Positions 26,224 through 39,425 of a stretch of 64,000 nucleotides of DNA are shown one piece after another (the stretch's first letter is position 1; the number at the start of each line of letters is the position of its first letter). The notes beneath the pieces were generated by a model. The model searched no databases and was not told the DNA's origin. It saw only the letters and a list, made by a program, of their open reading frames with translations. The stretch is taken from positions 96,001-160,000 of the forward strand of contig CAVTUQ010000004.1 of assembly GCA_963737905.1 (NCBI GenBank). The letters are read 5' to 3'. A program made the translations under genes and the position numbers. This stretch comes from an uncultured delta proteobacterium (GTDB taxonomy: Bacteria; Desulfobacterota; Binatia; UBA9968).

Positions 26224-26814
26224 ATGTTACTCAAAACAATTTTCGTTCTGTTGTGGTTCCTATCATTCAGCCATTTCCCAGCGTTCGCCCAATTAGGTCC
26301 TAAGGATGGGACCGATCTGAGTCCAACGGATCTCCAGCGAGTCAAAGTAGGACAGCCCGCGCCTGACTTCACGCTGCAAGATGTCGACGGCAAAAACATG
26401 TCGCTGTCGGATTTCCGCGGGAAGAAGTCAGTTGTCCTGGTCTTCTATCGCGGCTACTGGTGACCCTTCTGCATCGAACAGCTCGGGAAGCTGAAAAGTT
26501 TATTGACGAAACCGCAGAAAGAGAAGATCCAGATTCTTGCCGTCAGTGTCGACAGCCATGAAGACTCTAAAAAATTCGCCCAGATGCTCCAGAAGCGCTT
26601 CGAAGGTGAGTTCGACTTTCCACTTCTGGAAGACAAAGACCACAAAGTGATCAACCGCTACGGGATATTCAACCCGGATGGTTCTGGCTGGCCCCATCCG
26701 ACTACTTTGGTGATTGATCCGCAGGGCGTGGTGCGTTGGAAATTCGTAGAAGTGGATTACAAGAAGAGACCTTCCAACGAACAGATACGACAGCAGTTAG
26801 CCAAGATTAAATAG
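26224..26814 (+). CDS. Predicted exported selenoprotein, AhpC/TSA family, UxxC, Sec80 (TGA 26461-26463), 196 aa
   Basis: In-frame read [21 protein letters not shown] joins ORFs 26224-26463 and 26503-26814; signal peptide. Confidence 0.9.
26479..26493 (+). promoter_or_regulatory. SECIS-like hairpin
   Basis: CAGCT-CGGGA-AGCTG 15 nt after the TGA. Confidence 0.55.
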
Positions 26815-27934
26815 CCGAGTTGCCGATCCATGGGATGCGGGTAGAGGCCCTTTCTGTTCGGAACACCAGGCAAGATCGAGAAAACGTTCGAGCTCTCGGT
26901 CGTCGATCACCGGAGCTTCCACACGATGGCGAGCGAGCAATCTGCGCGCGGCCGAGTCATCGAACTGAACGTCTTGTTTTAGATAATCTCGATAAGGCGA
27001 CAGCATCCGCGCCACTCTCATTTCGAGGGGCGATCGGATGGCCAGCCGTTCGGTAGCATTCACAAGAGACAGATTGTGTAAGTCGAGACGCGCGCTCATC
27101 ATCTCCAGCATGCGCTTTTGCGTGGGTGGATCTTTAGCAACAAGATGAATCGTTTTGCCTGCCGCTTCGGGATCGTCACTCAGTCGTTCAATGGCCGCCG
27201 CGACGTATTCCACTGGAACAATATTAAATCGAGCCTGGGGTCGGCCCTGAATACGAAGAGGAGTATTTCCGGCGCCGGCTTTGCACGACAAGGCGATCAG
27301 GAGCCGGAGAAACGCCAAAAACAGGTTGGACGGCACTCCGCCAGGCGTTGAGGGCGCGCCCCCGACAACGATGCTAGGTCTGAAAATTACTAGATCGACT
27401 CCAAGCTGGCGGCAGGTTTGTTTGAGCCGGATCTCTAGCTCCAGCTTGAGCCGTTCATAACCATTGTGAAATTCCTGCCCCACATCCGTTTGGTTTTCAT
27501 AGATCATGCCTTCGCGGCCGCCGCAAACAAACGCCGTTGAGATATGGACCCAACGAGCGTAAACCCCCGGAACGGAGGATTTTAAGGAGAGCAAGTGGCC
27601 CGTCGATCTGAGCAAATCGCGCTGATTCTTGCTCGCTGGCTGAGAAAGTCGTCTCTCCGGCGCAGTGGATCACCGCATCGATGGTTGACCCGTGGCGCTT
27701 AAGATTGCCCTGTATCACAGCAGGATTTGCGAGATCTCCGTCCACCACCTCGAGCGATCGCCGAGAAACTTCACCAAAGATTTCCGCCACCCGCTGCTCT
27801 CCCGTTAGTCCAGCCCGGTGCCGGGCCAAGATCACCACGCGCCGGCCGGCCAGCAAAAGGCGACTAACCACATGCCTGCCGATGAAGCCCGTAGCGCCGG
27901 TTACGAGGACCGCCGGATCTGATTTTCTGAGCAT
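26797..27934 (-). CDS. Extended SDR/thioester-reductase-like protein, frameshift near 27575
   Basis: VLVTGATGFIG, IHCAG, HISTAFV, YERLK, RPSIVVG. Confidence 0.8.
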
Positions 27935-28651
27935 GAGAGATTCCTACGATTGAGGCTCCGTCCTCCCCACCTATCCCAGTGCCCCGCGTACCGCTGCGTG
28001 TCGAGTCTAAGCGAATGGAGAAAAAGAACCCATAGAATGAACGACAAAGCACGCCACGGACCCCACGTGAGGAAACGGCGTCCTGACGTAATCAGCGGGA
28101 GAGGAATGACTTTCGTCCGACCCCGTCTTTTCAATCGCTGGCTAAAATCTAAGTCTTCCATGAACACGTCGCGATAGCCGCCAATTTCGCGAAAGATCGC
28201 GGCCCGCACGAAGATGCCCTGATCCCCGTAATAGTTGCGCGTCAGAAAGTAGCGCCGCCGGTTGATCCAGCTGATAAACCTTAGACTCCATACCGCTTTC
28301 TGCAAAGCGGTGCTCGAAAGCTCCTCCTAAAATAGCGTTGTCTTGCAAAACGCGCTGGATCTCCGTCAAGGCGTCCAGCGGCGGAAACGAGTCCGCGTGC
28401 AGAAAGAAAAAGATATCCCCGACGGCTGCGGCGGCGCCGGCATTCATCAGAGCCGCGCGGGTGGAACGGCCAGGCCATAAAATACGCGCGCGCCCGGCCA
28501 CGGCATCTTCGGTCGCTTTTATGCCACCCGAAGCGGCCACGATAATTTCTGCCGTTTCGATACCACCCAAGCGCTCCAAGTGATCGAGTGTGAAACGAAG
28601 CGCTTGAGCGTCATTTCGAGCAGGTATGATGATCGAGATAGACGGATCCAT
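27901..28651 (-). CDS. GT2 glycosyltransferase, TIGR04283-like, frameshifted
   Basis: ISIIIPA, RA..MN.GA, FLHAD, YGDQGIFVR, MED, TSGRRF; paralog of 49300-49977. Confidence 0.8.
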
Positions 28652-28907: not shown

Positions 28908-29507
28908 CTACAGCAGTTTTTTTCCAACCATCAGTGCGTCGACGTAGTCTTTCCGCAAGCTCGCGTAGTCCTCCGTCAATTGGACACCCAGCGCATCCGC
29001 CATTCGCGTGATAAAGTTTCTGTAACTGGTGACCGCGGCGATATCGAGAATCTCGGACTCACTCCAACCTGCCTCCTTTAGGGTCCGCACATCGGGCGCG
29101 TCCACTTCGCTCGGGCGAAGGGTAATTTTCTCAGCGTACTCGAGCATGGCCTTATCCTTGTCATCCAGCTTCGACTGGCGAAAATCGCGCGCGACCGCCA
29201 TCACGAGATCGTAATCTCCATTGACTTCTTTACGGAGAAACTCTCCGTGGGCAACGGTTCAATAACTGCACTTGAGCAGCGCACCGACGAGAACGGAGAT
29301 CATTTCTTCACGTTTGACTCCCAGGCTGGAACCGCCAAATTGAATCGCCCTGGAAAATACGTGCTGGGCTTCGAGAAGGTCAGGCCGGAGGCTAAAAATC
29401 TTCGCGATGTTTGAGACTTTGCCGGAGTGGTGATTCATTCTTTTCTGATAAATCTCTTTGATCTTGCCTGTCGCCTCCGACTCCTTGATGGTTTTAATAA
29501 AAGGCAC
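28908..29507 (-). CDS. Predicted selenoprotein, AhpD/CMD-like, CxxU, Sec83 (TGA 29261-29259), 199 aa
   Basis: EMISVLVGALLKCSY-U-TVAHGEFLR continues in frame into ORF 28908-29204. Confidence 0.92.
29232..29248 (-). promoter_or_regulatory. SECIS-like hairpin
   Basis: ACGGAGA-GTT-TCTCCGT starting 10 nt after the TGA. Confidence 0.8.
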
Positions 29508-29533
29508 CTTTCAAGTTCTCCTTTCAGGGATCG

Positions 29534-29625
29534 TTATCGACATAGGCCGCTTTGCTCGAGCTCGCGGATCAACGTGTCATCGATAAATTGCCCCGGTTTT
29601 ACATCCTTGGCGAAGCTGTCGGCAA
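29534..29625 (-). pseudogene. 3' remnant of a NitT/TauT-type substrate-binding protein gene
   Basis: Reads AKDVKPGQFIDDTLIRELEQSG, matching the SBP C-termini elsewhere in the window. Confidence 0.65.
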
Positions 29626-29638
29626 GACATGTGCGGCA

Positions 29639-30193
29639 TCACCCACGAAGAAAATCGTGACCGGAGATTCCCATCGCGTCGGCCATGCGATCGTTGAAAT
29701 TGTAAAGGCAGATTACGTAGACGATATCTAAAATATCTCGATCGGCGAAGCCGTGAGAGCGCAGTCTGTTGATATCGTCTTCGCTCGCCGTCGACGGCGC
29801 GATCGTCAGCTTGACCGCGTAATCCAACATCGCACGCTCCGCGGCCGGCAAATCTAACCGCGTGTAATCCTGCTTGATGCCTTCGACCAAAGGATCGTCG
29901 TTCGATTCGGTACGGAGAGCCTCCCCGTGCGCGGTCATTCAATAACTGCAATGGTTGGTCGCCGATACGACGGTCGCGATCATCTCGCGCTGGCGCCGCG
30001 TGATGCGCGATTCGCCGCGCATGATCCCGACGTCGATCTCGCGCCAAGCGGCCAGAACGTCGGGATTCAGGCTTTGTACTTGCCGGATCATCGAAACTTT
30101 TCCTCGCGCCGCCGACGGGCCGGCGCCAGACTCGTAAATTTCTTTCAGCTTGCCGGTGGCCTCAGACGGAGGGATCGTGCGGATGTAAGGCAT
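29639..30193 (-). CDS. Predicted selenoprotein, AhpD/CMD-like, CxxU, Sec85 (TGA 29941-29939), 184 aa
   Basis: REMIATVVSATNHCSY-U-MTAHGEALR; ORFs 29939-30193 and 29639-29938 are contiguous in frame. Confidence 0.93.
29912..29928 (-). promoter_or_regulatory. SECIS-like hairpin
   Basis: ACGGGGA-GGC-TCTCCGT (one G-U pair) 10 nt after the TGA. Confidence 0.75.
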
Positions 30194-30196
30194 GAT

Positions 30197-30409
30197 TCAC
30201 TCCTCTGCTCCAGATTGAGATCCGCGAGCATTGTTCACGGACAACACATGGCGCACCGCTTCAATAATTTCATAGCGACAGTCGCTTTTTTCCGGAACAC
30301 GGCGCAGCTGGACAACAATATTTTCCGCCTCTGCGCGCGAGTAGAACAATCCCACCGTGCTGACCTCGCCGTTGAGACGAATTTCGTTGACGTAGAGCTT
30401 TTCCATCAT
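30197..30409 (-). CDS. Small hypothetical protein within the operon
   Basis: 70 aa, GAGG RBS, fills the gap with 3-4 nt spacers. Confidence 0.7.
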   Translation of the reverse strand: MMEKLYVNEIRLNGEVSTVGLFYSRAEAENIVVQLRRVPEKSDCRYEIIEAVRHVLSVNNARGSQSGAEE

Positions 30410-30413
30410 TGCC

Positions 30414-31286
30414 TCACCAAGACTTCGGCGTCTTGTAGCCGACTTGTTTTCGTTCCTTCATGAAAGCTCTGTAAGTCCCCGGATGAGATTTCACGTTGTA
30501 GGGACAAACGTCGACGCACAGATGACAGTATTCGTCCCGCAGTCGCGAATAGGGATAGCACTTTTCCAGATCGATGAGCCAGCGTTTGATGCCGTGCGTG
30601 ATGACATGATCTTGCGGGATCGCGTCGCCCGGGCAATTCAACTGGCAGACGTTGCAGTTCATACAAACGTCCTGCACGCCGAATTCGCGCGGGTGATCCT
30701 CGACCAGGGGCAGATCCGTCGTGACAAAGCCCGGACGGAAGCTGGAGCCGTACTTTTCGTTGATCAAGCTGCCGTGGCGGCCGAGCTCGCCGAAACCCAC
30801 CTGATAAAATATCGGAATGGCCTGCACCTCGCTGGCGCCATTGTGGTGTGCGCGCGCCGGATAGCCAAGCGCGCGAACGTAAGCCGCGAGATCGCTCGCG
30901 ATCTCGGTGCACTTGGCATAGGTCCGCATCGCTTCTTCCTCTACGGCGTTGGCGCCATGGACAACTTTTTCGTAGTCTTCCGCCACGCAGGCGACGATAA
31001 CAAATTCGTGCGGCACATCCTCGCCAAGGTCGATCATGTGCGGCTGCAAGCGGCAGATCCCGACCATGTTCGCGCCGAGTTCCATCGATTTGGCTTTGAT
31101 CTGTTCCGTCATCCCCGCCAAATCACTAACTTCGACGCGTTGTGAATTGACCGGGCCATCGCGGAACGGCGCGAGCTTCACCCAGCTATCGCGGTAGGCC
31201 TGAATCTTCGGCGTCGCCGCGGTGTAATGACGCGCCGTCTCCATTCCCGCCGCATGGACCATTGAAGCCAATACCGGATCAGCCAT
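30414..31286 (-). CDS. Reductive-dehalogenase/QueG-like protein with two [4Fe-4S] motifs
   Basis: GFGELGRHGSLINEKYG..FR...VTTDLPL, CMNCNVCQLNCP, C..CHLCVDVCP; no Tat signal. Confidence 0.85.
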   Translation of the reverse strand: MADPVLASMVHAAGMETARHYTAATPKIQAYRDSWVKLAPFRDGPVNSQRVEVSDLAGMTEQIKAKSMELGANMVGICRLQPHMIDLGEDVPHEFVIVACVAEDYEKVVHGANAVEEEAMRTYAKCTEIASDLAAYVRALGYPARAHHNGASEVQAIPIFYQVGFGELGRHGSLINEKYGSSFRPGFVTTDLPLVEDHPREFGVQDVCMNCNVCQLNCPGDAIPQDHVITHGIKRWLIDLEKCYPYSRLRDEYCHLCVDVCPYNVKSHPGTYRAFMKERKQVGYKTPKSW

Positions 31287-31385
31287 GCCTTGTTCTCGCC
31301 TCGGTGTTATTCCACGCATACTAACGAACCCTTCCTGCGATCATCTTCACGCTGCAATCCCTGCTTCCTTCTCATTCAACCGGAG

Positions 31386-32493
31386 CTAATCCTCGGTCCA
31401 CGCATCGTCGTAAAATTCATGCGGGTTGAAGTCGAGCACCAATCCCCTGCCCTGCTTCGAAAGCTTGTCATAGATCAGCCCGCCGATGGCCGCGGCGCCG
31501 ATGCCCCAAAACGCGCAGTTTTTGAAGTAAGTGATTTGCGCTAGCATCGGTCCGTCCGGTTTTTTCACCCCGGATAACCTCTCCGGCGTCGACAATCTTG
31601 CGCGCGATGTTCGGACGATCGAGCGAGGCTTCCCAAAACACGGCGGTCTTGTCGAGTTCTTCCTGTCCCCAAACATTGGTCATTAAAATGTCGGACCGCT
31701 CCAGGGTGCGTTCGTCGATCTCCCGGCGCATTTGGTTGATATAGCCTCTCTTTTTCAGTGCGATATTGCTCGATACGATCGAGGTGACATGCTGGCCCGG
31801 AACCAGCCAATCGCCATCAAAAACCGGAACATTCGAATTGGTTGCGCAGATAATCACATCGGCGCCATTAACAACCTCGGCCGGTGAATCGACGGCGACG
31901 ACTTCGATGCCCAGAATCGCGGTCATTTCGACTGCGAATTTTTCTCGATTCTCTCGTGTCGGGCTGAAGACACGCACCTTGTTGATCGATTTCCGGATAC
32001 AGGTGAGCGCCAGGAGGTGGAGTCTAGCCTGGTCCCCAGCGCCGAAAACCCCTGCGACCCGGGAGTTTTTGCGCGCGAGCAGATCGGTCCCGACCATCGA
32101 GGCACAGGCCGTCGGCATCGCCACCACGCTGTTTGCGTCGGGCAGCTCTTTGGGATGCATTTCGCCGACTAGAATGAGCTTCAACGCCGCTGTGTCGCTG
32201 TCGTAAAGCACCAGAACCGGGCGCCCGCGGCGGGGATATTTTTGTTTGTCGCCGAAAATGCGCACAAGCTCCGCGTGCGTCATGATGCCCGTCGTGCCGT
32301 ATGCCGGCGCGGCGCCCTGGTGTAGCGTAATTCGCACGTTCTTCGGCGTGTGCGTGCGCCGCCGAAGCTCCGCCACCAGCGGGTCCTTCGCCCAATTGCG
32401 GAAGGCGTCCAGCATTGCATCCACTGCCTCCGACATCGCGAGAATGCCGCGGTGGTCGTCCGGTTTTGCTAAAATCGCCACTGGTGCCGCCAT
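31386..32493 (-). CDS. Ornithine cyclodeaminase/mu-crystallin family protein, frameshift near 31545
   Basis: GVFGAGDQARLH, VFSPTRENRE, ADVIICATNS, PGQHVTSI; the C-terminus GRT...ITYFKN shifts frame. Confidence 0.85.
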
Positions 32494-32511
32494 CGATTCT
32501 CCCTGATTTCC

Positions 32512-32793
32512 TTATTCGGGCACTTCGACGGTCACGTCGCCGACAATCCGCGCGACGCAAGCCAGCCTTTCGTCCGGCCCCGCGTTCATCATTTCGAGGG
32601 TCAATTCCTCGTTCTCGTTCTTTTCACTCAGGTGTTCTTTGCCGGAAAGGATCTTTACCCGGTCAGTGCCGCAAATCGCTTCGGTGCAGTCGTGGCGAAG
32701 CTGCAAGCCGTTTTGAATCGCCGAAACCAGGACCGTCGTGCCCACCGCCACTTCAAATGACTGTCCGGCCGGCATAAAAGTCACCGTCGGCAT
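32512..32793 (-). CDS. [2Fe-2S] ferredoxin, adrenodoxin-type
   Basis: HDCTEAICGTDRV...RLAC. Confidence 0.85.
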   Translation of the reverse strand: MPTVTFMPAGQSFEVAVGTTVLVSAIQNGLQLRHDCTEAICGTDRVKILSGKEHLSEKNENEELTLEMMNAGPDERLACVARIVGDVTVEVPE

Positions 32794-32796
32794 AGT

Positions 32797-33687
32797 TCAG
32801 GCCGCCATGCTTTTGATGCGCTCGATCGCTTCATTGATCATCCACTCGGGGGTCTCGTTGGCGCCGATGATACCCACCTTCTCTTTTCCCCGCAGCCACT
32901 CTAACCTGAGGTCGTCGACCTTTTCGATTTTGTGCACATGCGCGTTGAAAGCGCGGGCGACTTCGACCATTCGGGTCGTCATCCCTTCGGTCCAGCCGAA
33001 AATAATCATGGCATCGACTTGTTTAGCAAGCTTCTCAACCTCCGGAAGGCGCTGTAGCGAATCGATGCAGGCCGTGTTTCTAATCTGAACGTTGGCAAAA
33101 CGCTCGAGAATCCGAGCAATGATCTTTTTGTAAGTTTCCAGCCAGAAGGTCGTTTGCACGATCACGCCGATGGGCTCGAACCGAGTGAGACGAATCGATT
33201 CGACTTCTTCTTCGCGCTCGACGATAAAGACTTCTTTTCCCTTTTCTCGCGCAATGCCCTGAAGCCTTGGGATGCCGTGGTGCGTGCGGCTGCTGAGGAC
33301 GACGAGATGACACCCGTGCTCCAGCAGCTCGATCTCCGCCTCTTCCTGCTGCGTGACGAAAGGACAAGTCGCGTCGGCCATCAGCGTGAGGCCTTTTTCG
33401 CGCGCCTTTTCTCTCACCTCGGGCGGCGCCCCGCGCACACCGTAAATCAGTTTTTCACCGGCGTCTATTGATTCCATATCGCTGGTTGAGCGAATCCCCT
33501 GTTCCCCCAGCCCTTCCTTTTTGAAAGCAATGAAATCGAGATCGGGTCTCAGCGACCAAACCGCCAGATGATCGCCATGCTTTGCGACCATTTTCTGGTG
33601 GATGGCGCCGGCGCGATGAACGCCGACGCATAGCCCGCTCGGAGGGATTCCTTTCACGTTACTCAAGTCGCCTTTCAATATTTGCAT
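32797..33687 (-). CDS. IspH/LytB-like [4Fe-4S] protein (divergent)
   Basis: GLCVGV, DATCPFV, QTTF, NTACIDS, GANETPEW; GGAGGA RBS before ATG33687. Confidence 0.8.
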   Translation of the reverse strand: MQILKGDLSNVKGIPPSGLCVGVHRAGAIHQKMVAKHGDHLAVWSLRPDLDFIAFKKEGLGEQGIRSTSDMESIDAGEKLIYGVRGAPPEVREKAREKGLTLMADATCPFVTQQEEAEIELLEHGCHLVVLSSRTHHGIPRLQGIAREKGKEVFIVEREEEVESIRLTRFEPIGVIVQTTFWLETYKKIIARILERFANVQIRNTACIDSLQRLPEVEKLAKQVDAMIIFGWTEGMTTRMVEVARAFNAHVHKIEKVDDLRLEWLRGKEKVGIIGANETPEWMINEAIERIKSMAA

Positions 33688-33767
33688 GAGTTTTCCTCCT
33701 CGTACAGTCATCGCCGCACTGTCATTCCAAGAGGTCCCTGCGCGGTTTGCCGCGCCGATTATCGGTG

Positions 33768-34247
33768 TTAGACCGCCCGTGGCAAATCGATCGGCCCTCT
33801 ACTCTGGCGCGGCTCGACGTCAAAAGCTGCCGCCATTCGAACCGCGTAATTGTGATAGGCGATCGCCGTGGCGACCAGCAACACGTCCTTGTCGCTAAGG
33901 CCGGCCGCGCGCAGATCTTCGATATCCTTCTTGCGCACCGCGGCTTCATCGAGGGTACCCTTCTCCGCATAAGCCAGGACCGCCTTCTCCGCCGCCGTGA
34001 GCGTGAGCGCGCGCCAATCGCGCGCCGCTTGAGCCGCGAATGATGGGTCCAGCCGCCCGCCTACGGCGTCGACGAAGCGCTCGCAACGCAGACAACCGGC
34101 AACCACGAGACCGATCAAACTGTACAGGCGCGGCGTCAATTGATCGACAAGCAGGCCGTGCATCGCCGTGTCCGCGTCCAGCGCGGCGGGCGCCGCGCTG
34201 AGCAGATCGTCCATCCTTTTTCCTGGGACCATACGCAAACGGCTCAT
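33768..34247 (-). CDS. Degenerate AhpD/CMD-like protein without Sec
   Basis: DWR..LT.AEKA.L.YAEK.T..DIEDLRAAGLSD; active-site region reads GCLRCERF; ATGA overlap with the upstream gene. Confidence 0.8.
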   Translation of the reverse strand: MSRLRMVPGKRMDDLLSAAPAALDADTAMHGLLVDQLTPRLYSLIGLVVAGCLRCERFVDAVGGRLDPSFAAQAARDWRALTLTAAEKAVLAYAEKGTLDEAAVRKKDIEDLRAAGLSDKDVLLVATAIAYHNYAVRMAAAFDVEPRQSRGPIDLPRAV

Positions 34248-34891
34248 GATTTGTCCTCGTACAGCGTCGTCTGCAGCTGCTCACGCGTCACGCCGAAGGC
34301 TTCTAAAATTTCCTCAGGAAAGTCGAACTTTTCTTCCTCTACGCCGAGCAGGTCGGCGATGCGATCTACCCAGGTTCGGTATCCTGCTCCCAGACCGATG
34401 GCGAGGATCTGATCTTCATCAAACCCGGCTTGGCGCAATTTGTCGATGTCTCCGTCGGTAATTTGATCCGGCGTCAGGGTAAATTTTTCGGTGAACTCCA
34501 GCATGGTTTTCTCCTGCTCGTCCAAGTCGGCTTCGCGCCAGTTGGAGATCACCTTGGCAACTTCCTCAACCGCCATTTTGCCGTCGACACGGAGAAACTC
34601 CCCGTGACCGATGCCTCAAAACCGGCAGCCGCTCAGCGCCGCAACCTGGGTGGCGATCAGCTCTTCCTTGCGCCGGCCCAAGCCTGAATGACCGGGCCGA
34701 TAGATGCCCCTGTCGAAACCGACTCGGGCTTCGAGCAGCGCCGGACACAGGCTAAAAATTCGCACGATGGGCGGCAGCTTGTCGCCGCGTCTCTGGCGCA
34801 CCGACGGGCTCAGCCGCGCGAGAGTACGCTGATAGACTTCCTTGAGTTCGCCGCTCGCCTCCGACTCGTGAATGACATCGATGAAACTCAT
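34244..34891 (-). CDS. Predicted selenoprotein, AhpD/CMD-like, CxxU, Sec92 (TGA 34618-34616), 215 aa
   Basis: ELIATQVAALSGCRF-U-GIGHGEFLR in frame with ORF 34244-34576. Confidence 0.92.
34588..34606 (-). promoter_or_regulatory. SECIS-like hairpin
   Basis: CACGGGGA-GTT-TCTCCGTG, same register as in the paralogs. Confidence 0.8.
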
Positions 34892-35574
34892 GAACCTTTC
34901 CCTTCACGCACCTGCCAGGGATCCGCCGGCATCGCCACACCGCGCTCCTTCGCTAACTTCTCCGCGCGCTCTGCGCCGGCTCGAGCGCTCTTTAGCTGCC
35001 ACTCGGCGACTTCCAGTCCGAGTCCATCGACCACCCGCACGCGGAAGTTGAAATAGGCGCACACGTGAACGATATCGAGAATGTCTCGGTCGGTCCAGCC
35101 TGCGTCTCGAAGTTTCTGTATATCTTCTTCCTTCATAGCACTCGGAGTTAAAGTTAACTTCTCGGCATATTCCAGCATCGTGTATTCGGCTGGCGTCAAT
35201 TGCATTTCGCGCCAATCCGATTTCGCCTGCTCCACCGCCAGATCGTCGCCACCCTCTTGACGCAGAAACTCTGCGTGGGCGACGGTTCAGAATCGACAGT
35301 TGAGCGCCCCTGAGGTCACCGTCGCGATCATTTCCCGCTGCGCCGTCGTGAGCCGGGATTCCCCTCGCATGATTTCCCACATCAGCTCCGCGGTATGCCA
35401 CATCGCTTTGGGATTGAGGCTGTGCAACATCGGCGGGCTAACCGGCGGTCCACCGGCTGACGCCTCGCGCTCCCGGTTGATTTTTTCACCCCGGCGCTGC
35501 TCGCGGATCTTTGCGTAAACCTCTTTTAGCTCTCCCTGGGCTTCAGCCTCGGGTGTGACCTTGATCCATGGCAT
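34888..35574 (-). CDS. Predicted selenoprotein, AhpD/CMD-like, CxxU, Sec96 (TGA 35289-35287), 228 aa
   Basis: REMIATVTSGALNCRF-U-TVAHAEFLR in frame with ORF 34888-35235. Confidence 0.93.
35244..35284 (-). promoter_or_regulatory. SECIS-like hairpin with lower stem
   Basis: CGTCGCC...ACGCAGA-GTT-TCTGCGT...GGCGACG. Confidence 0.8.
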
Positions 35575-35815
35575 TTGACTGTTCTCTTTCTTGACAGCCC
35601 TGATTTACTAACCGTTTGTCTTGTCTGATTCTGTCAGAATGAACTCATGTTGTCGCCCGCCGTCCCTGTATGCTCCAATGCATCTTGATACGCCAGCAGT
35701 TGGGGCTGAAGCGCAAATCGTCCGCCGCGCCGGCGAGATCGTACAGTTTCATCGAGCTAAGTATCGCGGGTAAAAGTGACTAGTCTTCCTCCAAGACCTG
35801 CCTCAAGAGATCAAA

Positions 35816-35851
35816 GTTGACTAACTACTACTAAGTATATAAGTAGTCAAC
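35816..35851. promoter_or_regulatory. Inverted repeat: candidate operator and divergent promoter
   Basis: GTTGACTA-N20-TAGTCAAC ending 1 nt before the gntR ATG; TTGACT on both strands. Confidence 0.55.
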
Positions 35852-36595
35852 ATGCTCCTGGCCAAAAAACCCGGCTCGCCTTTTCCTCTCTACTATAAGG
35901 TGATGATGGAAATCCGGGATAACATCTTATCCGGAAAGTGGGGCTCCGGCTTTCAAATTCCGGGGGAGATTGATCTCTCCCGGCAACTGGGTGTCAGCGT
36001 CATCACCGTGCGACAGGCCCTGGGACAGTTGGCGCAAGAAGGCTATCTAAGACGCGAAAAAGCAAGGGGCACCTTCGTAAACTGGAAGGGTCCTTTGAGA
36101 CAGTCCGTGAGTTTAGAAGTGCCGGCGGATGATCTCGCCACCATCAATCCTGACAGCACAAGCTTCAAACTCCTATCATTCGATCTCATTGAGTCTCCGG
36201 TAGACATTGAACAAAGTCTCCGGATACCGCGTAAAGAAAAAATAACACGCATTATTCGGATCCGATTATCCCAAGGGCAACCCCTCGCGTACGTGATTTC
36301 CTATGTCCCCTCGCGAATCGGTTCCAAGATTCAAGAAAAGGAGCTCGCGCGATCGCCCCTCAATACCATCGTTGAAGACCTCCTGCCGTTCAAAATCACT
36401 CGAGTGAAACATACGGTTGCGGCGAGGCTGGCCGATGATGAGGTGTCGGCTCACCTTGGGATCCCTCCGGGGTCACCGGTGCTTTACGTCGAAAGAGATT
36501 ATCTTCATAAAAAGGAAATGATTTTGCGATCCGTGGGCTTCTATCGGACTGACCTTTTCACTTACGAGCTCACGCTCAAACGCCGATCTCGCTAA
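35852..36595 (+). CDS. GntR family regulator, HutC/UTRA subfamily
   Basis: PLYY..IPGE.DLSRQLGVSVITVRQAL..L..EG..RGTFV plus UTRA-like C-terminus. Confidence 0.92.
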   Translation: MLLAKKPGSPFPLYYKVMMEIRDNILSGKWGSGFQIPGEIDLSRQLGVSVITVRQALGQLAQEGYLRREKARGTFVNWKGPLRQSVSLEVPADDLATINPDSTSFKLLSFDLIESPVDIEQSLRIPRKEKITRIIRIRLSQGQPLAYVISYVPSRIGSKIQEKELARSPLNTIVEDLLPFKITRVKHTVAARLADDEVSAHLGIPPGSPVLYVERDYLHKKEMILRSVGFYRTDLFTYELTLKRRSR

Positions 36596-36630
36596 CTGGT
36601 TATATCAGGTTCGTACCACTGGGGGTTTGT

Positions 36631-37395
36631 ATGATGAACATTGATGCTCTGAATGACCTCGCAGCCAACCGGAGAAGCATCCGCGGCTACGATAAGACAA
36701 AAAACGTTCCCGATGAAATGGTGCGAAAGATTCTCGATTGCGCCCGCTGGGCGCCTTCGGGAGGCAACGGCCAGCCTTGGGAATTTATCGTTGTCCGCGA
36801 TGAGAAAACTCGTCATGAGATCGCAGATATCTTCTTGAAGCAGCAAGAGCATAAAAAGGAAATGGAGATGGCTGTGCGCGGCGACGCGAAGATGACCGGT
36901 GATGGCTTCCGACATGCGCCGGTGCATCTCGTCGTGTTAGGTGACCCCAGGGTGAAAGAGACCTATCCGGTGAGAACGATGCTGGATAAGGCGGACTCCC
37001 ACTTCTACACAGGCCTGGCCAGCGCCACCTTGTTGATTCATCTGGCTGCGACTTCTCTCGGCTTGGCATCTCAGTATGTCAGCGACGCAAGCTCACCCTA
37101 CATGGAAACCATGCTCAAAGTTCTTCTTGGGGTACCCGAGCCTTTGAGGGTTTACCACCTGATTCCACTGGGCTATGCGAGCAAACCGATTCCCGCCCGG
37201 CCTCGGCGCGAGGTTGATGAGATGACCCACTATGAGCGCTATGACATGGCGAAATACAGAAACGACCGCGAGTTTCAAAAGTTCGTCATGACTGCCAGCC
37301 GGAGAGGTTACTACGGAAAAAAAACCTGGGTGGAGGACGATACGAATCAAACAACCGACCCTAAGGGAGGAAACAATGAGCAAGAAACAAGGTAA
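36631..37395 (+). CDS. Nitroreductase family flavoprotein
   Basis: RRSIRGY, ARWAPSGGNGQPWEFIVV, LAATSLGL. Confidence 0.9.
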   Translation: MMNIDALNDLAANRRSIRGYDKTKNVPDEMVRKILDCARWAPSGGNGQPWEFIVVRDEKTRHEIADIFLKQQEHKKEMEMAVRGDAKMTGDGFRHAPVHLVVLGDPRVKETYPVRTMLDKADSHFYTGLASATLLIHLAATSLGLASQYVSDASSPYMETMLKVLLGVPEPLRVYHLIPLGYASKPIPARPRREVDEMTHYERYDMAKYRNDREFQKFVMTASRRGYYGKKTWVEDDTNQTTDPKGGNNEQETR

Positions 37396-37927
37396 AGTCG
37401 ATCTGGCGAAATTTCGCGAGGTCCATCAAGAGCAGCGGGAGCAGGCGAAGAAAGGTCCGGAAGGCCATACTCTCGTTGCCCGCGCCGTAGTCCGGCTCGT
37501 CGAGGACCAGCTCAAAGAGGCGAGAGTTGGGGAGTACACCATCCAGTGCGATGAGGCCAAGTCGCGCAAGGGCGGCGGTAAAGCGCCATCACCGCTGCAA
37601 TACTTTGTCGCCGCGGCGGGATTTTGAATGTTCAGTCAACTGGCGCGGTACGCGTCTCAATTGGGCATTGAGATCGAGGATGCGGAGATGGATATTCGAA
37701 TGACCTACGACACGCGCGGCAAGTTACTGTTAGCCGATGTCTCTCCGGCCTGTCGTGAGCTGACCTATGTTTTTAAGATTGAGAGCCCGGCGTCACCGGA
37801 AAAGGTGCAGGAGTTATTGCAGATGATCGAGAAGGGATGCCATACCATCAACTCGCTGAGAAATCCGGTGCCCGTGTCAGGGAAACTTGTCCATAACGGG
37901 CAAGAATTCGCCGTTCCTTCAACTTAG
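37376..37927 (+). CDS. Predicted selenoprotein, OsmC/Ohr family, Sec84 (TGA 37625-37627), 183 aa
   Basis: DE..GG...PSPLQYFVAAAGF-U-MFSQ; second Cys in GCHTINSL; ORFs contiguous in frame. Confidence 0.9.
37628..37668 (+). promoter_or_regulatory. SECIS-like hairpin
   Basis: Upper GGCGCG-GTA-CGCGTC; lower ATGTTCAGT/ATTGGGCAT with G-U pairs. Confidence 0.7.
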
Positions 37928-37969
37928 CCCGTCTGCTAGGGAAGGATAACCATTAAACAAGGAGGTAAA

Positions 37970-38455
37970 ATGGCAAAGCAACTGAATATGGGCGACTTAT
38001 TTCCCGAGTACGTCGTGCAAACCGTGGATAATCGCACGCTTCATCTGCCACGAGACTTGTCCGGGGAATACTCGGTGCTAATTTTTTACCGCGGCGGTTG
38101 GTGACCTTACTGCAATCGGCAGTTGGCCGACTTCCAATCACACATCGACGAGTTCAAGAAAGAGAACGTCGACATCGTGGCCCTATCTGTGGATCCAATG
38201 GATAAGGCCAAGGAGACCGTGGAGAAGCTGCAGCTTACTTTTCCCGTGGCCTATGGACTCGAAGTGCCCAGGGATGCGGACAAAGTAGGCGCGTTTTGGG
38301 AGGAGCGGAGAAAAATCATCCACGCCACGAACTTTATTCTGGACTCAGACAAAAAGGTAGTCGACGCTTCTTATAGCATCGGCCCCATCGGCCGCATCGT
38401 CGCCGCCGACGCCCTGAGCCACGTCCAGTTCTTTAAAAAAAGAAAGGCACAGTAG
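37970..38455 (+). CDS. Predicted selenoprotein, AhpC/TSA family, UxxC, Sec45 (TGA 38102-38104), 161 aa
   Basis: AAGGAGGT RBS; MAKQLNMGDLFPE...LIFYRGGW-U-PYC-NRQLADF; 5' part is missing from the ORF track. Confidence 0.92.
38116..38130 (+). promoter_or_regulatory. SECIS-like hairpin
   Basis: TCGGC-AGTTG-GCCGA 11 nt after the TGA. Confidence 0.6.
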
Positions 38456-38595: not shown

Positions 38596-39048
38596 TCACT
38601 TAGACACAGCTGTCTGAGCAAAGCCGGCAAGCGCTTTTTTCAGGTTTTCCACAGCCGGGCACTGCGACACCCCATGGCGTCGTGCCAGGAATTCGGGATC
38701 GTTGTACCCGAGCCATACCTGCCCGGACGCATCCTCCCAGACGAGCGCCTTAAGCGGCAGATCAATGCCCACCGTTTGGCTGCATTCCATAAACGGAGTG
38801 CCGCCCTGCGGATTACCAAAGATCAGCAACTCGGTCGAGCGCAGTTTCTTCCCTACTTTCGCTGCGCCGGCGGCATGGTCGATGCGCACAAATATCGTCA
38901 GCCCTTTCTCCTTAACAACAGCCTCGAGGCGATCCATCGTATCCTTCGGGTTATGCGGACTCTTAACCACGATGAGCCCATCCGCACCCCAGGTGAAAGT
39001 CGAAAGAGAAAACAAAAACATAACGATGACTGCTTGAACGATCTTCAT
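38596..39048 (-). CDS. DUF302 family exported protein
   Basis: RIDHAAGA, FGNPQGGTP, GIDLPLKALVWED; AGGAGG RBS. Confidence 0.88.
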   Translation of the reverse strand: MKIVQAVIVMFLFSLSTFTWGADGLIVVKSPHNPKDTMDRLEAVVKEKGLTIFVRIDHAAGAAKVGKKLRSTELLIFGNPQGGTPFMECSQTVGIDLPLKALVWEDASGQVWLGYNDPEFLARRHGVSQCPAVENLKKALAGFAQTAVSK

Positions 39049-39425
39049 GATAGACCTCCTAATACACCCGCCAGGATGATTGGCATAGCTTTGTCCGGCT
39101 GACGCCCAGCGTTCATCGCATGCGCTACCCCGCGATCTTCCAGTCGGCGGCAGCATGCGATTTCTACCTCGATCAACCGATCAATTGCTCATTGTTGCAA
39201 AAATCTTTGACCCTGGATTAACACGAGGCCTGCAAATTCCAGATAGAGCCAGCGACCGGCACTTGGTGCAGAGTTTATGGACCTCTGGCGCAAGGCTGTT
39301 GAGATCGAGCGTTATTCGCCCTTCTGATATCGGTGCCGCTTCAGCTTACTCAGCCTTTGATCACAAGGCACAAACAGTCATCCATGACTGTTTGTCTTTT
39401 ATAGGAGACGTCCCGACGTTTCCGA

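Follow-up and report, generated by a model that had tools for sequence, protein, structure and literature searches.

AhpD-like proteins with a C-x-x-U motif, OsmC-like proteins and peroxiredoxin (Prx)-like proteins with a U-x-x-C motif are listed selenoprotein families (Table 2 of PMC2398784; PMC13188914), and one metagenomic read carrying a Prx-like U-x-x-C gene beside an AhpD-like C-x-x-U gene was noted in 2008 (PMC2398784). Large selenoprotein operons have also been described, namely the SAO system with six selenocysteine (Sec) genes and the Tso operon (Haft and Gwadz 2023; Haft and Tolstoy 2025; both as cited in PMC13188914). Here, we analyzed a 64,000-nucleotide stretch of DNA, referred to as the window (GenBank assembly GCA_963737905.1, contig CAVTUQ010000004.1 or C4, positions 96001-160000), from a metagenome-assembled genome (MAG) of an uncultured soil member of the Binatia (completeness, 87.5%; contamination, 6.69%). 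Positions 28908-38455 hold six predicted selenoprotein genes of these three families, four AhpD-like, one OsmC-like and one Prx-like, together with genes for a small RdhA-like iron-sulfur protein, FeS301, and a 70-amino-acid protein, orf70. An earlier reading of the bare sequence (the original prediction) had proposed a hidden Sec island at this place. We consider it probable that the region is a multi-selenoprotein locus built around a FeS301-orf70 core, in which a selenol relay would be attached to the reductase.

The AhpD-like selenoproteins described from marine metagenomes (PMC2398784) are of the same TIGR01926/COG2128 family and carry the same C-x-x-U, but here four Sec paralogues and one degenerate copy share a single operon, and while Cys forms dominate the family outside this lineage, the Sec form accounts for 46 of 50 matches within it. 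Likewise, the 2008 read held two genes without further context, whereas the present locus spans 9.5 kb, includes a regulator and an RdhA-like core and is found in many MAGs. As far as PMC13188914 outlines the SAO and Tso systems, they resemble this locus in grouping several Sec genes that belong to different families, which suggests pathway-level coordination, but the Binatia locus differs from them in its gene families, lineage and chemistry. We found no literature description of this neighborhood, although the catalogue of Haft and Tolstoy (2025) could already list it, and nothing joining Binatia with selenocysteine or Binatota with selenoprotein. The six genes are, judged from their sequences, new members of selenoprotein families that were each known individually, as the original prediction had stated, in a neighborhood for which no description was found.

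A functional parallel is provided by mycobacteria, in which AhpD serves AhpC, and by OsmC/Ohr proteins, which likewise form peroxidase systems. The presence of a CMD-fold protein of the C-x-x-C type, a peroxiredoxin and an OsmC protein suggests the same donor-to-peroxidase logic for the Binatia locus. However, Sec replaces Cys in all partners here, no lipoamide system is encoded nearby, and the Prx is a U-x-x-C thioredoxin-like form, unlike typical 2-Cys AhpC.

In-frame UGA codons and their hairpins

Under the standard code, the locus appears as twelve short open reading frames (ORFs), which become six genes once TGA is read through. Each of the six has one in-frame TGA, located at the redox Cys position, and the motifs are those that the original prediction had read at the catalytic Cys: CSY-U and CRF-U twice each in the AhpD-like genes, GF-U in the OsmC-like gene and W-U-PYC in the Prx-like gene. 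The prediction had also expected standard annotation to call these genes fragments; in keeping with this, the six are split into twelve, and database entries for orthologues break off at the Sec codon or carry a Trp there. Such misannotation would leave a whole selenium-dependent redox system invisible in a lineage that is widespread in soil and groundwater. All four AhpD-U genes pass the curated cutoff of TIGR01926 (81.8 bits), and the cutoffs for the models matched by the other two are 95 bits for NF041052, "OsmC-related (seleno)protein," and 26 bits for PF00578 (Table 1); no NCBIfam peroxiredoxin equivalog scored above cutoff for the Prx-like protein.

It is scarcely credible that the six genes are pseudogene fragments or products of sequencing errors in which the TGAs are true stops. 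In favor of this possibility, at least one real frameshift, in the OCD gene, is present in the window, two more neighboring genes occur as overlapping split ORFs, and tRNA-Sec was not found in the MAG. Against it, the TGA occupies the same column in every covering orthologue, over dozens of independent assemblies: in 4/4 for AhpD1, 20/20 for AhpD2 and 11/11 for AhpD4, in 11/11 orthologues and 2/2 paralogues of the OsmC gene (13/13), and in 5/5 orthologues and 6/6 paralogues of the Prx gene (11/11). For AhpD3, seven of eight primary high-scoring segment pairs (HSPs) contain the TGA, and in the eighth (locus L065), TGA and hairpin lie in a second, frameshifted HSP; one of these eight rows comes from the unpublished genome G012. 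Orthologue identity 3' of the TGA is 0.72-0.93, as high as that 5' of it, synonymous sites are conserved over the hairpins, selA, selB and selD are present, and homologues have Cys at the U column. The last point comes from an alignment that had been proposed as a check, comprising 16 of the 120 matches listed (151 in total), in which all 12 full-length AhpD homologues ("peroxidase-related enzyme," C-x-Y-C) carry the Cys; closer database matches end at C-S-Y or show W where the gene caller used another code.

A hairpin lies 3' of each of the six TGAs, beginning 7-17 nucleotides (nt) past the UGA, and all six hairpins that the original prediction had placed just downstream were thus found. Their nucleotide sequence is conserved, in contrast to the variable synonymous sites on either side. 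Each of the four AhpD groups shows its gene-wide minimum of synonymous diversity in the six-codon window that covers the hairpin (the corresponding window ranks second lowest in Prx and sixth in OsmC), and pairing of the 7-bp helix was seen in 99.7% of 315 cells. In the OsmC paralogues, the hairpin reads UCCCG-GUA-CGGGA, so that the GUA loop is kept and the stem is altered on both sides. Through such short hairpins, a SelA/SelB/SelD system would read each UGA as Sec. The corresponding genes, for which a search had been suggested, were all detected above their curated cutoffs (selA, 606.9 bits; selB, 409.8 bits; selD, 381.4 bits) and lie adjacent to one another at C29:71024-75669, selD with an in-frame TGA of its own.

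Other results are neutral with respect to Sec insertion at these sites or speak against it. Folding-energy z values for the six hairpins are -2.40, +1.05, -2.57, -1.23, -0.21 and +1.08, of which only two stand out, and the hairpins are therefore held to be real because they are conserved and not on account of their folding energy. One helix pair covaries (G-C to C-G in the AhpD4 group), but this is probably a single event, and 493 of 500 shuffles reach that covariation count. The tRNA-Sec that had been expected with the sel genes was absent from the 44 tRNAs detected in the MAG by Aragorn at default settings, and blastn of the MAG with tRNA-Sec from five relatives gave no match. The best RF01852 match (46.6 bits; cutoff, 47) is a tRNA-Leu, and Aragorn at lowered thresholds produced tens of thousands of false tRNAs and was discarded. 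We read the missing tRNA-Sec as a sign of MAG incompleteness (87.5% complete, with only 44 tRNAs); all five complete genomes from the same order contain one, at 73-78 bits with RF01852. Since TGA ends 965 of the 2416 open frames of at least 350 codons and also serves as the terminator of AhpD2, AhpD3 and AhpD4, it is an ordinary stop in this genome, and genome-wide reassignment is ruled out. Taken together, it is almost certain that all six genes are Sec coding, and this central claim of the original prediction was upheld by every computational criterion applied, apart from the missing tRNA-Sec.

The Sec form, as judged by its codon, is the rule for this AhpD family in the relatives searched. 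AhpD-like matches numbered 50 in 41 genomes, with exactly one TGA in the 46 mentioned above, and of the other four, two do not span the U column; matches occurred in 14/24, 4/5 and 0/11 genomes of families f1, f2 and f3, respectively, and the unpublished genomes G006 and G012 supply 5 of the 50 rows. That almost all AhpD-like genes detected in these relatives are Sec forms points to an extensive use of selenium by Binatia that had gone unremarked. In one sister-family genome, a lone AhpD1-type Sec gene has a group II intron reverse transcriptase/maturase gene (L129:10057-11409) as its neighbor.

A seventh candidate Sec gene lies about 2 kb to the left of the locus at 26224-26814 (plus strand). 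Its 196-amino-acid Prx/ResA-like product has a W-U-P-F-C motif and an N-terminal signal-like hydrophobic stretch, so that it is predicted to be secreted, and gave no NCBIfam model above cutoff. Sec OsmC/Prx-like paralogues with the TGA at the same column were also seen elsewhere in the genome (C39:17228-17746, C37:131625-132062, C44:26376-26858 and C38:39855-40106). A genome-wide read-through scan for C-x-x-U and U-x-x-C motifs was swamped by spurious high-GC frames, with Cys at +/-3 in 242 and 259 cases against 220-294 at other offsets among 8972 candidates, and was rejected as a means of counting the selenoproteome; U-G-S-C-like motifs on C31 were recognized in it by eye only.

FeS301, orf70 and the link to AhpD2

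The closest described relative of FeS301 is NpRdhA from Nitratireductor pacificus (PDB 4RAS, 6ZXU), in which, according to PMC7565698, Tyr426 is the proton donor and Ser422 is involved in substrate binding. The alignment of FeS301 with PDB 4RAS (E value, 2.4e-54) takes in the B12-binding core and the two cluster motifs, in agreement with the earlier call of a B12-type reductase, and a Foldseek search with its AlphaFold model ranked NpRdhA (TMq, 0.64) before PceA (0.56) and QueG (0.39). Tyr426 corresponds to Y134 of FeS301 and Lys488 to R195, both invariant in 24 sequences, as are the Cys residues of the two cluster motifs, while Ser422 is replaced by Ala and Arg552 has no aligned residue. As judged by sequence inspection, both proteins lack a Tat signal and an RdhB. 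They differ in that NpRdhA has 704 amino acids and FeS301 only 301, without the duplicated N-terminal domain, and in that FeS301 has a dedicated 70-amino-acid partner, the three residue differences just named and a score below the cutoff of the reductive dehalogenase (RDH) model. An assignment of FeS301 as QueG was rejected, with 42.9 bits for TIGR00276 (cutoff, 200), and the true QueG of this lineage is encoded at C22:159290-160288 (393.6 bits). In metagenomes, the FeS301 family comprises 1068 proteins at an E value of 1e-10 or less, annotated only as ferredoxin or epoxyqueuosine reductase.

In light of this relationship, one could suppose that the locus serves a reductive detoxification or catabolic pathway, with FeS301 as a cobalamin dehalogenase or C-X/C-O reductase and the selenoproteins supplying reducing equivalents or handling the leaving group, as Sec does in the Prx-fold deiodinases. 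Consistent with this, FeS301 is nearest to the catabolic NpRdhA and keeps its proton-donor Tyr, a true QueG is encoded elsewhere in the genome, the locus includes a nitroreductase-family protein and a metabolite-type regulator, and a DUF302 protein that matches the DUF302 part of a CrcB fusion model recurs beside the module. Nevertheless, we regard this alternative as quite improbable: FeS301 reaches only 108.6 bits with TIGR02486 (cutoff, 160.35), Ala stands in place of the substrate-binding Ser422, nothing aligns with Arg552, neither a substrate nor a halide transporter nor rdhB is evident, and the housekeeping neighborhood of the gene pair in complete genomes of a more distant clade fits a constitutive function better.

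The relatives of this gene pair were studied in 66 related loci, which were fetched with FeS301 as the query and are kin rather than independent samples; loci with at least 80% FeS301 identity are referred to as the near clade and those with 55-79% as the distant clade. In 51 of 55 loci with enough flank, orf70 directly follows FeS301. No Pfam or NCBIfam family and no informative Atlas neighbor was found for orf70, and its relatives form 25 clusters only among 1.84 billion representatives, which the Atlas places in Binatota. Complex prediction for FeS301 and orf70 gave a score of 0.83, against 0.00 for the best control, with runs agreeing in at least 94% of contacts and a partner pLDDT of at least 75; 58 of 80 solved complexes and 2 of 110 mismatched pairs scored this high, which is only an approximate calibration here because custom alignments were supplied. 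The predicted interface is made up of the FeS301 N terminus and of residues 235-252, which lie between its two cluster motifs, and orf70 is predicted to dock on the ferredoxin-like domain of FeS301.

On its other side, orf70 is tied to AhpD2. The distance from the orf70 stop to the AhpD2 start is 2-3 nt in 20/20 loci, and an AAGGAG lies in the end of orf70, the last codons of which, AAG GAG, form from their sequence and position the AhpD2 ribosome-binding site; the two genes are, by the same token, translationally coupled. Moreover, in-frame orf70-AhpD2 fusions occur among database proteins (P0011, P0029 and P0048), which end at the Sec codon. This coupling and these fusions suggest that an AhpD-like selenoprotein is held at the electron-entry side of the reductase, and on this basis the AhpD proteins may well be coupled to it, although we put this only slightly above an even chance. 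Two further observations concern orf70 itself: locus L082 contains two orf70 matches in tandem, and the 985-amino-acid protein P0263 contains five orf70-like stretches and may be a repeat protein of the same small domain.

The most likely reading is that FeS301-orf70 acts as an Fe-S/corrinoid reductase and that orf70 holds AhpD2 by the electron-entry side of FeS301, where the Fe-S clusters and the selenenylsulfide of the C-x-x-U motif would exchange electrons, in a direction that we infer only. From there, they might be passed onward to OsmC-U and Prx-U as peroxidases, similar to the service of AhpD to AhpC in mycobacteria. That the substrate is a peroxide or another electrophile is, in our view, an evenly balanced proposition. 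In this window, the operon would have gained by insertion a module of an IspH paralogue, a 2Fe-2S ferredoxin and an OCD protein. This ferredoxin could plausibly serve as electron donor, since a 2Fe-2S ferredoxin supplies NpRdhA with electrons in vitro (PMC7565698). Finally, the divergently transcribed GntR regulator may place the locus under metabolite control.

Modularity of the locus and competing readings

Co-occurrence of the genes, which the original prediction had proposed as a check, is conserved, but within one clade only. In the near clade, AhpD2-U follows the FeS301-orf70 pair in 22 of 32 loci, and a Sec-AhpD gene stands on either side of the pair in 17 of the 22 loci with both flanks; of the 23 distant-clade loci, by contrast, 22 have the pair without Sec genes. 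A recurrent layout, GntR, Prx-U / (OsmC) AhpD4-U, AhpD3-U, degenerate AhpD, FeS301, orf70, AhpD2-U, OsmC-U, (GST), is found in whole or in part in L066, L067, L071, L075, L082 and L104, and without OsmC-U in L065. Among the 24 near-clade loci with sufficient flank, only 4 have the IspH-like and ferredoxin genes, with or without OCD, on the upstream side (the L051 row is from genome G006). One MAG has two FeS301-orf70 loci, L081 with IspH-like and ferredoxin genes and L082 with the Sec module, whereas the window and L059, on a contig of G012 (the source of the L049/L059 row), merge both modules. The idea of one fixed pathway did not survive this comparison: the locus is a composite of three modules that also occur apart.

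These data bear on a further explanation, namely that the region is a generic selenium-dependent peroxide/disulfide defense island that accreted beside the oxygen-labile Fe-S/B12 enzymes, or protects them, without exchanging electrons with them. The three Sec families all belong to peroxidase systems, an additional OsmC and a GST are encoded in related loci, AhpD-U orthologues occur alone beside unrelated oxidoreductases, more Sec-OsmC and Sec-Prx paralogues are present elsewhere in the genome, and the Sec-free pairs of the distant clade fit such an island as well. It does not, however, account for the 2-3-nt orf70-AhpD2 coupling in 20/20 loci or for the three in-frame fusions, and the regulator is of the HutC/UTRA metabolite type and not of the OxyR, PerR or OhrR type. 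We consider the defense island unlikely, albeit clearly less so than the catabolic pathway.

The reading that we favor, a selenol relay attached to the FeS301-orf70 core, has to contend with the following. Besides lacking Sec genes, the distant-clade pair sits between tmk/holB/metG/tatD and pilin genes, so that Sec genes flank the core in one clade only. Solitary AhpD-U orthologues (57-74% identity) are found in sister-family genomes beside a Mo-hydroxylase or a Rieske oxygenase. FeS301 falls below the RDH cutoff, its bound cobalamin is putative and deduced from the sequence, and its structural model is poor (pLDDT, 63) and was used only to rank fold matches. Several contig titles among the related loci also carry discordant phylum labels, probably due to binning.

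A bolder extension, which we think rather unlikely, is that FeS301, orf70 and a tethered C-x-x-U selenoprotein constitute a new cobalamin/Fe-S reductase system. If so, a selenol/thiol couple would be the physiological redox partner instead of a ferredoxin or an NAD(P)H domain, and aerobic soil and groundwater Binatia would perform selenium-driven reductive dehalogenation or deoxygenation, with OsmC-U and Prx-U as further relay members. According to PMC7565698, the NpRdhA work used a non-cognate electron-donor system. The conserved FeS301/orf70 pairing with a coupled or fused AhpD-like selenoprotein offers a concrete candidate electron-partner complex for nonrespiratory NpRdhA-type reductases.

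Regulator and neighboring genes

Table 1. Coordinates of features of the locus within the window
Feature	Position	Strand	Remarks
AhpD1	28908..29507	-	TIGR01926 108.4 bits; C-S-Y-U; Sec codon 29259-29261
AhpD2	29639..30193	-	TIGR01926 136.8 bits; C-S-Y-U; Sec codon 29939-29941
AhpD3	34244..34891	-	TIGR01926 86.9 bits; C-R-F-U; Sec codon 34616-34618
AhpD4	34888..35574	-	TIGR01926 127 bits; C-R-F-U; Sec codon 35287-35289
OsmC-related selenoprotein	37376..37927	+	NF041052 153.3 bits; G-F-U-M-F-S; Sec codon 37625-37627
Prx-like selenoprotein	37970..38455	+	PF00578 (AhpC-TSA) 80.6 bits; W-U-P-Y-C; Sec codon 38102-38104
AhpD1 hairpin	29232..29248	-	Synonymous diversity 0.0 vs mean 0.417, n=5
AhpD2 hairpin	29912..29928	-	Synonymous diversity 0.032 vs mean 0.453, n=21
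AhpD3 hairpin	34589..34605	-	Synonymous diversity 0.089 vs mean 0.433
AhpD4 hairpin	35260..35276	-	ACGCAGA-GUU-UCUGCGU; synonymous diversity 0.033 vs mean 0.435
OsmC hairpin	37642..37656	+	GGCGCG-GUA-CGCGUC
Prx hairpin	38109..38123	+	ACUGC-AAUCG-GCAGU; unusually near UGA; synonymous diversity 0.10 vs mean 0.445, n=5
FeS301	30414..31319	-	301 aa; presumably cytoplasmic; minimal NpRdhA-type homologue; putative cobalamin-binding core and 2x[4Fe-4S]
orf70	30197..30409	-	70 aa; Binatia restricted; predicted FeS301 subunit
Degenerate AhpD-like	33768..34247	-	TIGR01926 52.6 bits (below cutoff); RCERF
IspH-like paralogue	32797..33711	-	TIGR00216 143.4 bits (below cutoff, 187.85)
2Fe-2S ferredoxin (Fer2)	32512..32793	-	Pfam
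OCD/mu-crystallin family gene	31386..32493	-	Pfam; frameshifted; ORF at 31468-32493
NMT1-like binding-protein remnant	29508..29638	-	Last ~35 codons; 131-nt spacer
GntR/UTRA regulator (HutC subfamily)	35852..36595	+	PF00392 57.2 bits; PF07702 92.9 bits
Nitroreductase-family flavoprotein	36631..37395	+	Pfam; BluB-like TIGR02476 70.5 bits (below cutoff, 150)
Palindrome GTTGACTA-N20-TAGTCAAC	35816..35851	.	Abuts gntR ATG; candidate promoter/operator

In the direction of transcription, the minus strand encodes AhpD4, AhpD3, the degenerate AhpD, the IspH-like protein, the ferredoxin, the OCD-like protein, FeS301, orf70, AhpD2, a spacer and AhpD1, and the plus strand encodes GntR/UTRA, the nitroreductase, OsmC and the Prx-like protein. 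Genes overlap by 4 nt or are separated by gaps of 3-66 nt, the 131-nt spacer being the one exception, and this tight spacing fits two divergent operons. Gene order, strands and domains match those of the original prediction, as judged by the ORFs, Pfam and NCBIfam. So does the scar it had placed in the spacer: the remnant there comes from an NMT1-like binding-protein gene, which L052 and L053 have intact and which has lost approximately 975 bp here. Its metabolite-sensing UTRA regulator was likewise recovered, as a HutC/UTRA-type GntR protein rather than a peroxide sensor of the classical kind, but the OCD-like gene, listed there in the leftward operon, is frameshifted in this window.

No NCBIfam equivalog scored above cutoff for the GntR regulator. 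The palindrome abutting its start codon is kept upstream of 4 of 8 GntR orthologues, and together with the HutC-type regulator, it suggests control by a metabolite. As no Shine-Dalgarno sequence is visible before gntR, its mRNA may be leaderless. TGACTA-type half-sites were also noted at 35772-35851, where GACTAGTC is a perfect 8-nt palindrome (35777-35784). Scans for promoters and terminators were at chance level (6 versus 4.6 expected and 16 versus 12, respectively). Nitroreductase orthologues with 91% identity lie beside GntR in L071 and L109.

The degenerate AhpD-like protein, which is not a TIGR01926 member, keeps the first Cys, has neither Sec nor Cys at the second position and lacks the N-terminal part, as seen in the alignment; orthologues with 65-77% identity are present in related loci. 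In IspH, we take Glu126 to be catalytic and His42 and His74 to bind the diphosphate. Compared with PDB 3DNF, the IspH-like paralogue keeps three Fe-S Cys residues, but E126 is replaced by Gly, H42 by Asp and H74 by Arg, and it is therefore presumably not a 4-hydroxy-3-methylbut-2-enyl diphosphate (HMBPP) reductase; a canonical IspH is encoded at C2:716309-717136. Orthologues of the paralogue (65-92% identity; best E values of 1e-130 or less) were found in 22 of 40 relatives, and in 7 of 17 loci the IspH-like and ferredoxin genes are direct neighbors. DNA alignment with five intact 368-amino-acid orthologues located the OCD frameshift to a 1-nt insertion near 31544, which marks either a pseudogene or an assembly error.

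Outside the locus lies the gene for a DUF302 protein (38596-39156, minus strand), which in several related loci is found immediately behind AhpD2; the protein matches the DUF302 part of the NCBIfam CrcB fluoride-exporter fusion model with 114.5 bits (cutoff, 312), a weak hint at a connection with halides next to an RdhA-like gene. On the other side, an NAD-dependent epimerase-like gene and a GT2 glycosyltransferase gene (26797-27934 and 27901-28651, minus strand) each consist of two overlapping ORFs in different frames, possibly due to frameshifts.

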